NCBI RefSeq assembly: GCF_013315695.1
Contig: NZ_CP054353.1
Origin: Escherichia coli
GTDB taxonomy: Bacteria; Pseudomonadota; Gammaproteobacteria; Enterobacterales; Enterobacteriaceae
DNA length: 64,000 nt
Direction: 5' to 3' (one strand)
A model generated the notes under the pieces. It did not search any database and was not told the origin of the DNA. It saw only the letters and a list, made by a program, of their open reading frames with translations. The position numbers and the translations under genes are program-made. How positions within the stretch are numbered: the first letter of the stretch is position 1; every line of letters begins with the position of its first letter. Below, piece by piece: positions 3,902-19,051 of the stretch.

Positions 3902-5356
3902 ATGTCTTTATCTCGCGCAGCGATTGTCGACCAGCTAAAGGAAATTGTTGGTGCAGATCGCGTAATTACCGATGAAACAGTATTAAAGAAAAACAGTATT
4001 GACCGTTTTCGCAAATTTCCGGATATTCATGGCATTTATACTTTGCCTATTCCGGCAGCGGTCGTAAAACTCGGTTCCACAGAGCAAGTGTCCCGTGTGC
4101 TGAATTTTATGAATGCGCACAAAATTAACGGTGTGCCGCGTACCGGTGCTTCCGCTACCGAAGGTGGACTGGAAACCGTTGTGGAAAACTCGGTAGTGCT
4201 TGATGGCTCTGCAATGAATCAAATCATTAATATTGATATAGAGAATATGCAGGCGACGGCGCAATGTGGTGTTCCGCTGGAGGTGCTGGAAAACGCGTTG
4301 CGTGAAAAAGGTTACACCACGGGGCATTCACCGCAATCAAAACCGCTGGCGCAGATGGGCGGCCTGGTAGCAACCCGCAGTATCGGGCAGTTCTCCACAC
4401 TCTACGGCGCAATCGAAGATATGGTCGTTGGTCTGGAAGCAGTATTGGCTGATGGCACCGTAACACGTATTAAAAACGTGCCACGCCGCGCGGCTGGCCC
4501 GGACATTCGTCACATTATCATCGGCAACGAAGGTGCATTGTGCTATATCACTGAAGTAACAGTGAAAATCTTTAAGTTCACCCCGGAAAACAACCTCTTC
4601 TACGGCTATATCCTGGAAGATATGAAAACCGGCTTCAACATCCTGCGTGAAATCATGGTGGAAGGGTATCGTCCGTCGATTGCTCGTTTGTATGATGCTG
4701 AAGATGGCACCCAACACTTCACCCATTTTGCCGACGGCAAATGCGTGCTGATCTTTATGGCTGAAGGTAACCTTCGCATTGCGAAGGCGACGGGCGAAGG
4801 GATTGCTGAAATCGTGGCACGTTACCCGCAATGCCAGAGCGTGGACAGCAAGCTGATCGAAACCTGGTTTAACAACCTGAACTGGGGACCGGATAAAGTG
4901 GCTGCCGAACGTGTGCAGATCCTCAAAACCGGCAACATGGGCTTTACCACCGAAGTGTCCGGCTGCTGGAGCTGCATTCACGAAATCTACGAAAGCGTTA
5001 TTAACCGTATTCGTACCGAGTTCCCGCACGCCGACGACATCACCATGCTGGGCGGTCACTCCTCTCATAGCTATCAGAACGGCACCAACATGTACTTCGT
5101 CTACGACTACAACGTCGTTGACTGTAAGCCGGAAGAGGAAATCGACAAGTACCACAATCCGCTCAACAAAATCATCTGCGAAGAAACCATTCGCCTCGGC
5201 GGTTCGATGGTGCACCACCACGGTATTGGTAAACATCGCGTTCACTGGAGCAAACTGGAACACGGCAGCGCGTGGACGTTGCTGGAAGGGCTGAAAAAAC
5301 AGTTCGATCCTAACGGCATTATGAATACGGGTACTATCTATCCGATTGAAAAATAA
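3902..5356 (+). CDS. ygcU: FAD-linked oxidase/dehydrogenase (484 aa)
   Basis: 484-aa ORF with an FAD-binding PCMH-type N-terminal region; RBS AGGAAGG upstream. Confidence 0.85.
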   Translation: MSLSRAAIVDQLKEIVGADRVITDETVLKKNSIDRFRKFPDIHGIYTLPIPAAVVKLGSTEQVSRVLNFMNAHKINGVPRTGASATEGGLETVVENSVVLDGSAMNQIINIDIENMQATAQCGVPLEVLENALREKGYTTGHSPQSKPLAQMGGLVATRSIGQFSTLYGAIEDMVVGLEAVLADGTVTRIKNVPRRAAGPDIRHIIIGNEGALCYITEVTVKIFKFTPENNLFYGYILEDMKTGFNILREIMVEGYRPSIARLYDAEDGTQHFTHFADGKCVLIFMAEGNLRIAKATGEGIAEIVARYPQCQSVDSKLIETWFNNLNWGPDKVAAERVQILKTGNMGFTTEVSGCWSCIHEIYESVINRIRTEFPHADDITMLGGHSSHSYQNGTNMYFVYDYNVVDCKPEEEIDKYHNPLNKIICEETIRLGGSMVHHHGIGKHRVHWSKLEHGSAWTLLEGLKKQFDPNGIMNTGTIYPIEK

Positions 5357-15005: not shown

Positions 15006-15740
15006 ATGTCCAAACTCGATCTAAACGCCCTGAACGAACTGCCAAAGGTAGACCGGATTCTGGCGCTGGCGGAAACTAACGCCCAACTGGAAAAACTGGA
15101 CGCTGAAGGCCGCGTAGCCTGGGCGCTGGATAATCTGCCCGGTGAATATGTACTTTCTTCCAGCTTTGGCATTCAGGCGGCGGTGAGCCTGCATCTGGTG
15201 AATCAGATTCACCCGGATATTCCAGTGATCCTCACCGATACCGGTTATCTGTTCCCGGAAACCTACCGCTTTATTGACGAGTTAACGGACAAACTCAAAC
15301 TCAACCTGAAAGTGTACCGTGCTACCGAAAGCGCTGCCTGGCAGGAAGCGCGCTACGGCAAACTGTGGGAACAGGGCGTTGAAGGTATTGAAAAGTACAA
15401 CGATATCAACAAAGTCGAACCGATGAACCGGGCGCTAAAAGAACTGAACGCGCAAACCTGGTTTGCCGGCCTGCGCCGTGAACAATCCGGCAGTCGTGCC
15501 AATTTACCGGTGCTGGCAATTCAGCGTGGCGTATTTAAAGTGCTGCCGATTATCGACTGGGATAACCGAACTATTTATCAGTACCTGCAAAAACATGGCC
15601 TGAAATATCACCCATTATGGGATGAAGGATATTTATCGGTCGGTGATACCCATACAACCCGTAAATGGGAACCCGGCATGGCGGAAGAAGAAACGCGTTT
15701 CTTTGGCTTAAAAAGAGAATGTGGGTTACACGAAGGGTAA
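15006..15740 (+). CDS. cysH: Phosphoadenosine phosphosulfate (PAPS) reductase
   Basis: 244-aa product [14 protein letters not shown]... ending ...ECGLHEG; the track ORF starting at 14853 is a 5' over-extension through the REP element. Confidence 0.9.
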
Positions 15741-15757
15741 ATATTGCCGGATAAATT

Positions 15758-15796
15758 AAACGCCTCTGTCAGAAATGATGGGGGCGTTTTTATTTT
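15758..15796 (+). terminator. Candidate terminator downstream of cysH
   Basis: AAACGCC...GGCGTTTTTATTTT: short GC stem plus T-run immediately after the cysH stop; the loop is long, so the call is weak. Confidence 0.35.
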
Positions 15797-15906
15797 GCGA
15801 GCAGCATTCCTGATTTTAAACGTGAACGTCGTTGGAAGAATTAACAGGTATAGAATGGCGTTGGGTGCTTGAGGCTGTCTGGCGTTAAGCATTCGCGAGG
15901 TTCCAG

Positions 15907-16008
15907 ATGGACAAAAGCCCCAGGCGATATTTCTATCAACCTGAGGCCAGCGTTCGAACCCAAACAATTCGAATGTTAGTCTCTTCTTTGCAGGGAGGCA
16001 AGACATGC
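15907..16008 (+). CDS. mok-like upstream reading frame, translationally coupled to hok
   Basis: 33-codon ORF ([15 protein letters not shown]...GGKTC) with a GAGG RBS; its TGA stop overlaps the hok ATG (ATGCTGA), the arrangement typical of hok/mok loci. Confidence 0.35.
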
Positions 16009-16157
16009 TGACAAAATATGCCCTTGTGGCAATCATAGTGCTGTGTTTTACAGTACTGGGATTCACGCTGATGGTAGGCGACTCGTTGTGTGAGTTGAGT
16101 ATCAGAGAACGTGGTATGGAGTTTAAGGCGGTTCTCGCTTACGAATCGAAGAAGTAG
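16005..16157 (+). CDS. hokX: Hok/Gef-family type I toxin (50 aa), apparently intact
   Basis: [50 protein letters not shown]: single TM helix followed by the conserved SLCE...AYES motif of Hok/Gef; GGAGG RBS; a GC hairpin (CGCGGGG-GTAAAA-CCCCGCG, 16164-16183) lies just downstream. Symbol by position between cysH and cas3. Confidence 0.7.
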
Positions 16158-16199
16158 CCACCACGCGGGGGTAAAACCCCGCGTACTGAATTGTGATGG

Positions 16200-16351
16200 T
16201 TTGGTCTCCTGCACCCTTTTTTAATTTATATTGTTTATGTGAATATTATGCCTATGTTTATTATTCATATATATTACGGATGAAAATTATTTGATTATTC
16301 ATAATGTAAATATTTTATTGAACGATATATATCACAGATAATTTTTAATAT
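16200..16351 (+). promoter_or_regulatory. AT-rich cas3 upstream/promoter region
   Basis: About 150 bp of very AT-rich DNA immediately upstream of cas3; in K-12 the cas promoters are H-NS silenced (established knowledge, not verified for this sequence). Confidence 0.4.
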
Positions 16352-19051
16352 ATGCGTAAATATCCTTTAAGTTTACTGAAGGATAAAAATATTGTGACTT
16401 TTTTTGATTTCTGGGGAAAAACCCGACGCGGCGAGAAAGACGGGGGCGACGACTATCACCTTCTTTGCTGGCATTCGCTGGATGTAGCCGCGATGGGCTA
16501 TTTAATGGTTAAAAGCAATTGCTTCGGACTGGCTGACTATTTTCGTCAATTAGGTTTCGCTGACACGGAGCTGGCAGCACAATTTTTCGCCTGGCTGCTG
16601 TGCTGGCACGATATTGGAAAATTTGCCCGCTCTTTTCAGCAACTTTACCTGCACCCACAACTCAAGGTTCCGGAAGGCGCAAGAAAGAATTACGAAAAGA
16701 TCTCTCATTCAACGCTGGGCTACTGGTTGTGGAACCATTATTTAAGTGAATGTCAGGAGTTGCTTCCTTCATCTTCACTCTCTCCGCGCAAACTTAAACG
16801 GGTGATGGAGATGTGGATGCCCATGACTACCGGGCATCATGGTCGACCCCCTGAGCGTATGGATGAACTGGATAATTTTCTGCCTGAAGACAAAGGTGCC
16901 GCACGAGATTTTCTCCTTGCAATCAAGGTACTGTTTCCGCTCATAGAGATCCCCACATTCTGGGATGATGACGAGGGCGTTGAACTTATAAAACAACTTT
17001 CCTGGTATATCTCTGCAACCGTCGTACTTGCAGACTGGACGGGATCGTCAACGCGATATTTTCCACGCGTCGCACAGACAATGGATATTGAAGATTACTG
17101 GCAGAAAACTTTAGTTCAGGCTCAAAACGCCTTAACCGTCTTTCCTCCAAAAGCAGAAAGCGCGCCTTTCACCGGAATTAATACGCTGTTTCCTTTTATT
17201 GAGAATCCGACACCGCTACAGCAAAAGGTGCTGGATCTGGATATCAGCCAGCCGGGACCACAGTTATTTATTCTGGAGGATGTAACCGGCGCAGGTAAAA
17301 CAGAAGCGGCGCTTATCCTGGCGCACAGGTTGATGGCTGCGGGGAAAGCGCAGGGTTTGTTTTTTGGCCTGCCAACAATGGCAACGGCCAATGCCATGTA
17401 CGATCGACTGGTCAAAACCTGGCTTGCTTTCTATTCGCCAGAGTCCCGCCCCAGCCTGGTGCTGGCACACAGTGCCCGAACATTAATGGACCGCTTTAAT
17501 GAATCACTCTGGTCCGGTGATTTAGTCGGGTCAGAAGAACCGGATGAACAAACGTTCAGTCAGGGATGTGCGGCCTGGTTTGCCGACAGTAACAAGAAGG
17601 CGCTACTGGCTGAAATTGGCGTCGGCACGCTGGATCAGGCGATGATGGCTGTGATGCCGTTCAAACATAATAATCTGCGGCTTCTGGGACTGAGTAACAA
17701 AATCCTGCTGGCTGATGAGATCCATGCCTGTGACGCTTACATGTCATGCATTCTTGAAGGGCTGATCGAGCGGCAGGCGCGTGGCGGAAACAGCGTCATT
17801 TTGCTTTCTGCCACGTTATCTCAACAGCAGCGCGACAAACTCGTTGCTGCCTTTGCGCGTGGTATAGAGGGCCAGCAAGAAGCTCCGTTCCTGGAAAAGG
17901 ATGATTACCCCTGGCTGACGCACGTTACGAAATCCGATGTGCATTCACACCGGGTAGCGACGCGCAAAGACGTTGAGCGCAGCGTGAGTGTGGGTTGGCT
18001 TCATAGCGAACAAGAGTGTATTGCGCGTATCGAATCGGCGGTAAGTCAGGGGAAATGTATCGCCTGGATCCGAAATTCTGTCGATGACGCCATCCAGGTT
18101 CATCGTCAGTTACTTGCCCGCGGCGTCATTCCTGCTTCCAGCCTTTCACTTTTTCATAGCCGCTTTGCTTTTAGCGATCGCCAGCGAATTGAAACGGAGA
18201 CGCTGGCACGCTTTGGTAAAGAAGACTGTTCACAGCGTGCCGGAAAAGTCCTCATTTGTACTCAAGTCCTGGAGCAGAGCGTTGACTGCGACCTGGACGA
18301 AATGATTTCCGACCTTGCCCCTGTTGATTTACTGATCCAGCGAGCAGGGCGATTACAGCGACATATCCGCGATATGAATGGCCAGTTAAAGCGTGACGGT
18401 AAAGACGAGCGTCACCCTCCTGAATTGCTGATTCTGGCCCCCGTCTGGGACGACTCTCCGGGTGACGAATGGTTTGGCAGTGCCATGCGTAACAGTGCAT
18501 TTGTCTATCCCGATCATGGGCGAATCTGGCTGACGCAGCGTGTGCTGCGTGAGCAAGGTGCTATTCAGATGCCACACTCAGCCCGGCTTCTGATTGAATC
18601 AGTCTACGGTGAGGACGTAGTAATGCCGGAAGGGTTTGCCCGCAGCGAGCAGGAGCAAGTGGGCAAATATTACTGCGATCGCGCAATGGCTAAAAAGTTT
18701 GTACTGAACTTCAGGCCCGGCTATGCCGCCAATATCAACGATTACCTCCCGGAAAAACTGTCGACACGTCTGGCTGAAGAGTCTGTTTCCCTGTGGCTGG
18801 CTACCTGTATTGACGGTGTGGTGAAGCCTTATGCCACAGGTGCACACGCATGGGAAATGAGCGTTGTCAGAGTGCGCCGAAGCTGGTGGAAAAAACATCG
18901 GGATGAGTTTGCTTTACTGGAAGGGGATGCGTTCAGGCAGTGGTGCGTTGAACAGCGGCATGATCCGGAGATGGCAAACGTGATTTTAGTCACCGATGAC
19001 GAAAGTTGTGGGTATTCGGCTACGGAGGGATTGATTGGCAAGGTTGGTTGA
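16352..19051 (+). CDS. cas3: Type I-E Cas3 HD-nuclease/helicase
   Basis: 899-aa ORF with an N-terminal HD region (HSLDVAA...HDIGKF), Walker A GAGKTEAA and DExH box LLADEIHACD; start could instead be the GTG 14 codons downstream. Confidence 0.9.
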   Translation: MRKYPLSLLKDKNIVTFFDFWGKTRRGEKDGGDDYHLLCWHSLDVAAMGYLMVKSNCFGLADYFRQLGFADTELAAQFFAWLLCWHDIGKFARSFQQLYLHPQLKVPEGARKNYEKISHSTLGYWLWNHYLSECQELLPSSSLSPRKLKRVMEMWMPMTTGHHGRPPERMDELDNFLPEDKGAARDFLLAIKVLFPLIEIPTFWDDDEGVELIKQLSWYISATVVLADWTGSSTRYFPRVAQTMDIEDYWQKTLVQAQNALTVFPPKAESAPFTGINTLFPFIENPTPLQQKVLDLDISQPGPQLFILEDVTGAGKTEAALILAHRLMAAGKAQGLFFGLPTMATANAMYDRLVKTWLAFYSPESRPSLVLAHSARTLMDRFNESLWSGDLVGSEEPDEQTFSQGCAAWFADSNKKALLAEIGVGTLDQAMMAVMPFKHNNLRLLGLSNKILLADEIHACDAYMSCILEGLIERQARGGNSVILLSATLSQQQRDKLVAAFARGIEGQQEAPFLEKDDYPWLTHVTKSDVHSHRVATRKDVERSVSVGWLHSEQECIARIESAVSQGKCIAWIRNSVDDAIQVHRQLLARGVIPASSLSLFHSRFAFSDRQRIETETLARFGKEDCSQRAGKVLICTQVLEQSVDCDLDEMISDLAPVDLLIQRAGRLQRHIRDMNGQLKRDGKDERHPPELLILAPVWDDSPGDEWFGSAMRNSAFVYPDHGRIWLTQRVLREQGAIQMPHSARLLIESVYGEDVVMPEGFARSEQEQVGKYYCDRAMAKKFVLNFRPGYAANINDYLPEKLSTRLAEESVSLWLATCIDGVVKPYATGAHAWEMSVVRVRRSWWKKHRDEFALLEGDAFRQWCVEQRHDPEMANVILVTDDESCGYSATEGLIGKVG

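Follow-up and report, generated by a model that had tools for sequence, protein, structure and literature searches.

The window analyzed here, a stretch of 64,000 nucleotides from Escherichia coli, very probably contains a complete chromosomal hokX/sokX type I toxin-antitoxin locus of Escherichia, with no insertion sequence (IS) and no deletion, in the gap between the end of cysH (position 15740) and the start of cas3 (position 16352). The RNA switch elements of hokX are all kept and the toxin is still under selection, but the canonical mok start codon is gone, as it also is in hokE and in most of the Hok clade. The textbook mok coupling therefore does not transfer to this clade, and the loss of the mok start beside a selected toxin raises a testable question, namely, how chromosomal Hok toxins are translated. 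The locus itself is already known, having been annotated, named, and surveyed before.

A 50-codon ORF lies in this gap at positions 16005 to 16157 on the forward strand. Its peptide matches the Pfam family HOK_GEF (PF01848; E value, 3.5e-11; residues 5 to 46), and the ORF corresponds to WP_000956460.1, annotated in RefSeq as "Hok/Gef family protein" (strain 2014C-3075, in which the region is 100% identical), which bears out both the Hok/Gef-type ORF recognized in a preliminary description of this DNA and its placement between cysH and cas3. The leader at 15863 to 16020 (forward strand) matches the full model (positions 1 to 157) of the Rfam family RF01794 ("sok") at 111.1 bits (gathering score, 59; E value, 6e-26); because this model runs in the sense orientation, it describes the hok mRNA leader and not the antisense RNA. 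The peptide falls below the curated cutoffs of two NCBIfam models, the equivalog model for HokA (NF007290; 57.7 bits, cutoff of 89) and the Hok subfamily model (NF007279; 41 bits, cutoff of 73), and hokX is thus neither a HokA nor a Hok-subfamily paralogue. A distant DNA search of plasmids returned only mislabeled chromosomes, hokE copies, and one 45-nt match, the sole usable DNA similarity to R1-type plasmid loci, and this result argues for no plasmid origin of hokX. Sub-threshold Rfam matches to ctRNA_p42d and Spot_42 (15698 to 15798) fall on the cysH terminator hairpin and were dismissed as chance.

The hokX/sokX loci of K-12 and E. coli B occupy the same chromosomal position as that of the window, the cysH-iap/cas3 interval. 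K-12 MG1655 has an annotated noncoding RNA, sokX (b4701, 2887353..2887411), between cysH and cas3, and its position agrees with the K-12 hokX/sokX location to which the preliminary description had pointed for comparison. Between the stop codon of cysH and the ATG of hok (15741 to 16007), K-12 and the window differ at five bases, none of them within 15907 to 15965, and past the hok ATG (16007) the two sequences diverge completely. The hok ORF of the window is absent from K-12, and judging from this alignment, K-12 has lost the toxin ORF and its sokX is an orphan antitoxin. E. coli B encodes the same protein as the window (WP_000956460.1), but there, unlike in the window, the hairpin that follows the stop codon is interrupted: the match stops at 16179, in the 3′ arm of this hairpin, at the end of an IS421 element (IS4-like). 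In derivatives of E. coli B, a CRISPR array lies beyond IS421, and both the fbi element of the hok mRNA and the cas genes are gone. A search for IS disruption in other strains, as suggested earlier, thus found it in E. coli B and found the window free of it. One paper states that hokX/sokX was first identified in E. coli B and is inactivated there by an insertion element; it also reports the locus as intact and IS-free in the AIEC strain NRG857c. According to a 2025 survey, 90% of urinary isolates carry hok and sokX beside cysH and the remaining isolates have sokX alone, "as in K-12." The pair has also been entered in a toxin-antitoxin inventory.

Of 5426 complete E. coli genomes, 5415 contain the 5′ portion of the locus and 4220 the hok ORF region, and in 3416 (63%) the ORF and 3′ untranslated region are contiguous to position 16222. 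About 1200 genomes (about 22%) carry the K-12-type deletion, with sokX only, and in about 800 (about 15%) the match ends near 16179, within the GC-rich hairpin. Most E. coli genomes therefore have an intact hokX, and it is K-12 and B that are the exceptions. The preliminary description was therefore right that the locus is complete and without IS or deletion but went too far in treating it as unusually intact, given that it is contiguous in 63% of genomes. Its loss or breakage in about 37% of genomes shows that hokX is dispensable. The commonest E. coli HokX allele has Cys15, and the allele of the window has Phe15 (F15).

The following elements of a hok mRNA were placed on the window.

15851 to 15856, forward strand: probable −10 box of the hokX mRNA promoter (TAGAAT, read from the sequence), 6 nt before the GGGTGC 5′ end and kept in relatives.
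15863 to 16222, forward strand: predicted full-length hokX mRNA of 360 nt, with the 5′ end taken from RF01794 position 1 and the 3′ end from the T-run.
15863 to 15876, forward strand: tac element, GGGTGCTTGAGGCT, the 5′ partner of fbi; the MFE fold pairs 15863 to 15868 with 16211 to 16216.
15917 to 15921, forward strand: ucb, GCCCC, the partner of the mok SD in the full-length MFE fold (helix 6, 98% paired in relatives).
15922 to 15942, forward strand: hairpin separating ucb from the mok SD, where sokT lies in the R1 paradigm (Rfam consensus hairpin 2; folds).
15943 to 15946, forward strand: canonical mok SD, GAGG, retained; in the alignment, it matches the GAGG that precedes the mok ATG in R1, hokB, hokC, and Klebsiella.
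15979 to 15983, forward strand: dcb, GUCUC, which pairs with the mok SD (GAGGC) in the truncated fold.
15994 to 15998, forward strand: hok SD, GGAGG, 6 nt before the ATG, invariant in 44 relatives, with a P(unpaired) of 0.42 to 0.57.
16005 to 16157, forward strand: hokX ORF, 50 amino acids, F15 allele, WP_000956460.1 (ORF call, RefSeq, and Pfam).
16163 to 16184, forward strand: GC-rich hairpin after the stop codon, ACGCGGGG/CCCCGCGT, 8 bp, found in the folds and 98% paired in relatives with 2 covarying pairs.
16203 to 16216, forward strand: fbi element, GGTCTCCTGCACCC, the 3′ partner of tac (fold and mapping on relatives).
16217 to 16222, forward strand: T-run, the presumed 3′ end of the transcript.

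The 360-nt RNA folds with an MFE of −130.7 kcal/mol (z score of −4.05 against shuffles), in a structure closed by pairing of the 5′ GGGUGC of tac with the 3′ GCACCC of fbi, the hallmark of a full-length hok mRNA. The switch formed by ucb, the mok SD, and dcb is also present: GCC(CC) pairs with GAGGC in the full-length fold, and GAGGC pairs with GUCUC once the last 36 nt are removed. The 5′ end of the truncated RNA forms the tac-proximal hairpin in preference to a tac/ucb stem; in the hok literature, this hairpin is a metastable structure formed during transcription. The T-run probably ends the transcript, and a further basis for this 3′ end is that E. coli genomes with other downstream DNA align only to about 16224. 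The GC-rich hairpin past hok, noticed in the preliminary description and present at 16163 to 16184, has no U-tract behind it and is the probable stop point of 3′ trimming. The hok/sok system of plasmid R1 (parB) shares with hokX the Hok/Gef peptide, tac/fbi, ucb, the mok SD, dcb, the GC-rich hairpin before the 3′ tail, and an antisense Sok promoter between the mok SD and the hok start. R1 hok/sok is plasmid borne and mediates post-segregational killing, whereas hokX is chromosomal and is not known to have this role.

Comparison with relatives supports this structure. We fetched 56 related loci, one genome per species, and aligned 44 of them. When the full-length structure of the window is laid on these 44 relatives, 88.1% of cells are paired, compared with 36 to 44% when the partners are slid by 1 to 3 columns; this measure is biased upward, as one of the aligned sequences supplied the structure, and changes on both sides of a pair are less affected. 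Thirty-six pairs have changed on both sides, and none of 500 shuffles reached the observed values. The tac/fbi helix is paired in 100% of the relatives but is nearly invariant and never changed on both sides, and so its support comes from conservation and not from covariation.

The antisense strand carries two further features.

15907 to 15965, reverse strand: SokX antisense RNA, 59 nt, with its 5′ end at 15965; K-12 sokX (b4701) maps here with identical sequence.
15973 to 16001, reverse strand: probable sokX promoter, with a −35 box TTGCCT (16001 to 15996), a 17-nt spacer, a −10 box TAACAT (15978 to 15973), and the start 7 nt farther on.

SokX is fully complementary to nt 45 to 103 of the hokX mRNA and folds into a 5′ tail, a long terminator hairpin (15948 to 15916), and a final UUUUGU (−23.8 kcal/mol; z score, −3.3). 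The preliminary description had estimated the position of the antisense RNA as about 15850 to 15950, which is about 15 to 55 nt too far upstream of where it lies. Its promoter boxes are conserved in relatives, appearing on the forward strand as GGAGGCAA and ATGTTA, and a conserved "ATG" 32 nt upstream of hok is the complement of the sokX −10 box. With 8 of 12 consensus matches, this promoter sits just below the threshold of our scanner and was not called. The consensus promoter and terminator scan of 15700 to 16400 called nothing beyond the cysH terminator and a single promoter-like site attributable to chance; because it missed both the hok and sok promoters (8/12 matches) and the Sok terminator, the promoter calls given here rest on sequence reading and conservation. 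The hokX mRNA promoter looks weak on this reading, with no good −35 box. Published RNA sequencing of EHEC lists reads for "sok_15/sokX."

The start of mok is where hokX departs from R1, and three features of the forward strand bear on it.

15897 to 15900, forward strand: SD-like GAGG of an upstream frame, 6 nt before the ATG at 15907 and conserved in Escherichia hokX copies.
15907 to 16011, forward strand: upstream frame of 34 codons (the "mok" of the preliminary description), whose TGA lies inside ATGCTGA and overlaps hok codon 2.
15954 to 15956, forward strand: canonical mok start position by alignment, here TCG and no start codon.

In R1, hokB, hokC, and relatives from Klebsiella, Kluyvera, and Enterobacter, the mok ATG follows the GAGG by about 6 to 8 nt. 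Its offset from hok is −57 or −58 in R1-type loci, hokB, and hokC and −50 or −51 in the Klebsiella, Kluyvera, and Enterobacter relatives, and the canonical frames either continue in frame through hok or are ended by the TGA of ATGCTGA. R1 has this ATG 7 nt past the SD, opening a 71-codon frame that is in frame with hok, where the window has TCG. Among the 44 aligned clade members, only 7 have an ATG at the canonical position (Enterobacter L020, Kluyvera L024 and L030, and Klebsiella L032, L040, L041, and L043), and each of the nine hokX copies from Escherichia and "Pseudocitrobacter" carries TCG or CCG at this site. The two Kluyvera loci resemble hokX in their orthologous place after cysH, in protein sequence (90% identity), and in their RNA elements; unlike hokX, they keep both the canonical mok SD and its ATG, from which the frame runs for 18 codons and ends at ATGCTGA in L024, whereas in L030 it is 67 codons long and stays in frame with hok. 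Without a canonical start for mok, hokX cannot work by the R1 mechanism in its original form.

The frame that was earlier taken for mok begins elsewhere. Its stop does overlap the hok start (ATGCTGA), as described, but it has 34 codons with its ATG and not 33, and the identification as mok does not hold: the canonical start is TCG, and the ATG at 15907 lies 47 nt upstream of that position, within the 3′ arm of the 5′ hairpin. The helix that holds this ATG (helix 3) is the best-covarying helix of the leader, and the AUG has a P(unpaired) of ≤0.09 in the full-length, truncated, and nascent folds. Ten E. coli alleles of the frame were read directly. In the window, ETEC4071, O111:H8, and B, it is 34 codons long and reaches into hok; it has 48 codons in K-12 and ATCC 8739, which carry the same upstream allele and no hok ORF; and it stops after 18 codons, about 41 nt short of hok, in O157:H7, NGF1, PMV-1, 64.1, and 2017.09.02CC. 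The frame is also broken in five relatives (L014 and L016 to L019), and its 34-amino-acid peptide has no NCBIfam match. The exact 61-nt allele of the window occurs in 818 of the 5426 genomes; an attempt to count the two upstream-frame alleles by identity bands of the 61-nt query gave classes that were not cleanly separated and so only a rough split, which the 10 alleles read directly support. Read from these sequences, the 34-codon frame is real but is neither conserved nor a homologue of mok.

The toxin ORF, by comparison, shows the mark of purifying selection. Its dN/dS against the window (Nei-Gojobori) has a median of 0.125 over 48 comparisons. In the Escherichia and "Pseudocitrobacter" group, where the mok ATG is absent, dN is 0 to 0.018 and dS is 0.06 to 0.28, with dN/dS of 0 to 0.14 within Escherichia. 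Purifying selection that has continued after the loss of the mok start argues that HokX is still made. The toxicity panel of a 2026 preprint on Hok diversity includes a construct, 46_982, that differs from the peptide of the window by F15C and matches the allele most frequent in E. coli. Three constructs are the only ones that the text describes as nontoxic, and 46_982 is not among them, which suggests that the C15 form of HokX is toxic when overexpressed from an engineered SD. Neither this panel nor the RNA sequencing data show that the native hokX locus is active. The same preprint, summing up earlier work, notes that intact chromosomal hokA, hokB, and hokC gave no post-segregational killing.

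These results bear on three other ways of understanding the locus. If the frame at 15907 to 16011 were a working mok, hok would be translated by termination-reinitiation at ATGCTGA. The GAGG 6 nt before its ATG and the overlap of its TGA with the hok start fit this idea, and Enterobacter L020 and Kluyvera L024 use the same frame and TGA for their canonical 18-codon mok. Further support comes from the sister clade, hokE. The hokE/sokE locus of K-12, the paralogue nearest to hokX (its protein is 78% identical, and its DNA about 80% over most of the mRNA), resembles hokX in its RNA elements, in having no canonical mok ATG, in an SD and ATG placed within the 5′ hairpin, and in a Tyr46 codon within TACG. 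It differs in its location near ybdK, in the IS186 that lies behind it in K-12, in a compensatory change of the stem between the mok SD and dcb (GGGGC/GUCCC, compared with GAGGC/GUCUC in hokX), and in an upstream frame that runs in frame into hokE for 83 codons. This 83-codon frame is found in 4 of 5 hokE copies, and one species keeps it through two compensating indels; in view of it, a similar relocated leader frame in hokX is conceivable. Against a working mok stand a start that is not at the homologous position, an AUG that is paired in all three folds, the 18-codon stop in five strains together with the breaks in L014 and L016 to L019, and the location of the ATG at the far 3′ edge of the SokX complementarity. 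On balance, we consider it unlikely that this frame acts as mok.

We likewise give little credence to the possibility that the locus is a silent relic, in which Hok, having no mok start, is never translated and the element survives through inertia alone, as the inactive K-12 hok loci do. The TCG at the homologous start, the base pairing of the replacement AUG in every fold, the deletions and hairpin breaks in about 22% and about 15% of genomes, and the chromosomal hok loci reported without post-segregational killing would all agree with such a relic. The low dN relative to dS in the group without mok is, however, unexpected for a dead ORF, the RNA helices keep covarying, and the hok SD within GGAGGCAA is invariant in 44 relatives, although its complement doubles as the sokX −35 box. 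A tie to the type I-E CRISPR-Cas system, with hokX as a stabilizing addiction module or a coregulated defense gene, is very improbable and is largely refuted by distribution. The hokX ORF does lie 195 bp ahead of cas3 in the same orientation, and hok/sok has been linked to phage defense in the literature. In PMV-1 and NGF1, however, hokX follows cysH and is followed by iap with no cas genes between, K-12 and ATCC 8739 have cas3 without hok, and cas3 is downstream in only 3 of 12 cysH-linked relatives. A preprint survey found that hok genes are not enriched near defense systems, with 12% lying within 20 kb of one against a random expectation of 9.4%. Linkage of hok to cysH persists across Escherichia species, "Pseudocitrobacter," Kluyvera, Lelliottia, and another enterobacterium, and the adjacency of hokX and cas3 is positional and reflects this old linkage to cysH.

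The account that we put forward, tentatively, is that translation of Hok from hokX has left the mok-coupling rule of R1. Since the canonical mok start has been lost in Escherichia, Hok would be translated either directly from its own strong SD (GGAGG followed by 6 nt) or by way of a relocated leader frame of variable length in the 5′ hairpin. The weak promoter probably produces an mRNA of about 360 nt, predicted to span 15863 to 16222, which would at full length be closed, with tac paired to fbi and ucb covering the old mok SD. By analogy with R1, trimming of the 3′ end back to the GC-rich hairpin (16163 to 16184) would remove fbi and allow the 5′ region to refold. SokX, transcribed from its near-consensus promoter on the opposite strand, would then pair with the refolded mRNA and lead to its decay. 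The product would be a membrane toxin of 50 amino acids.

One more feature may add a layer of control.

16140 to 16143, forward strand: TACG at codon 46 (Tyr), a candidate site of TadA A-to-I editing (Tyr46 to Cys) recognized from the sequence.

HokX has cysteines at positions 14 and 29 and a tyrosine, Y46, at the second Cys position. A-to-I editing of codon 46 to Cys has been reported for hokC, hokD, and hokE (40% in hokE), and in HokB, Cys46 together with an edited Cys29 has been implicated in disulfide-dependent toxicity. K-12 has no hokX gene, and editing of hokX could therefore not have been observed there. By analogy, TadA editing of Tyr46 might gate HokX toxicity in addition to the RNA switch. 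The TACG motif is present in 42 of the 44 relatives, and the other 2 have a hard-coded TGCG.

The K-12 counterpart of the hokX/sokX locus (L003) differs from the window at 5 positions over 15741-16007, and the match runs to the G of the hok start codon (16007/16008), past which K-12 diverges completely from the window as far as cas3. K-12 therefore lacks the hokX toxin gene, and sokX is there an orphan antitoxin. K-12 also has a different region upstream of cas3 and a different cas3 variant, whose product is 888 aa (2,667-nt CDS) rather than the 899 aa encoded in the window, and it has no counterpart of the window's AT-rich spacer:

16223-16351, AT-rich 130-bp hokX-cas3 spacer
16352-19051, cas3, 899 aa, a non-K-12 type I-E variant

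A different end of the locus is found in E. coli B derivatives, where an end of IS421 (IS186-like) lies within the 3′ arm of the hokX post-stop GC hairpin (GGGG-N6-CCCC), at window position 16179. On the far side of IS421 stands the CRISPR array instead of the remainder of hokX, and therefore fbi, the 3′ partner of tac in hok mRNA, and the cas genes have been deleted. The stretches of the E. coli B derivative L004 that bear on this insertion are as follows:

2817-2840 and 4140-4200 (L004 coordinates), site of the IS421 insertion and its surroundings

Similarly, hokC and hokE of K-12 carry IS186 at the equivalent hairpin. Given IS421 in hokX of E. coli B and IS186 in these two K-12 loci, the hok post-stop hairpin looks like a recurrent target of the IS186 family.

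The frames upstream of hokE and hokX were compared among related loci. At hokE (L010, L038, L048, L052, and L036), a GAGG Shine-Dalgarno sequence and an ATG about 99 nt upstream open a frame of 83 codons that shares the hokE reading frame; this frame survives in E. whittamii (L052) by way of a +1 and a −1 indel and is broken in one copy (L036). No mokE is annotated in K-12. In E. coli hokX alleles L067 and L070 to L073, the upstream frame stops at codon 19 through differences in window 15958-15966, and two separate allele types reach this same stop, one being ACCTAAGC and the other, which lacks 1 nt, ACGTAGC. The shared stop may be coincidence or may reflect selection for early termination.

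Within the toxin frame, the Tyr46 codon lies in a motif that may be recognized by TadA:

16140-16143, + strand, TACG holding the hokX Tyr46 codon TAC, candidate TadA recognition motif

TACG is the TadA recognition motif, and A-to-I editing to Cys has been reported at the equivalent codon of hokC, hokD, and hokE. The motif is kept in 42 of the 44 aligned clade members, and the other two (L047, L050) have a hard-coded TGCG.

In three "Pseudocitrobacter" assemblies (L011 to L013), HokX has the same sequence as in the window, and CysH shares 97 to 99% identity with its E. coli counterpart; in L013, cas3 also follows downstream. Such likeness is unexpectedly high for a different genus and points to transfer or to a problem with the taxonomy or the assembly.

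Sub-threshold Rfam matches to ctRNA_p42d and Spot_42 were dismissed as chance, caused by the cysH terminator hairpin:

15758-15789, cysH intrinsic terminator, 14-bp stem and T-run

RF01794 (Rfam "sok antitoxin") matches the leader of the hok mRNA at 15863-16020, on the sense strand, and the antisense RNA lies on the opposite strand. Annotations taken from RF01794 can assign "sok" to the incorrect strand; the entry "sok_15/sokX" of an EHEC table is an example.
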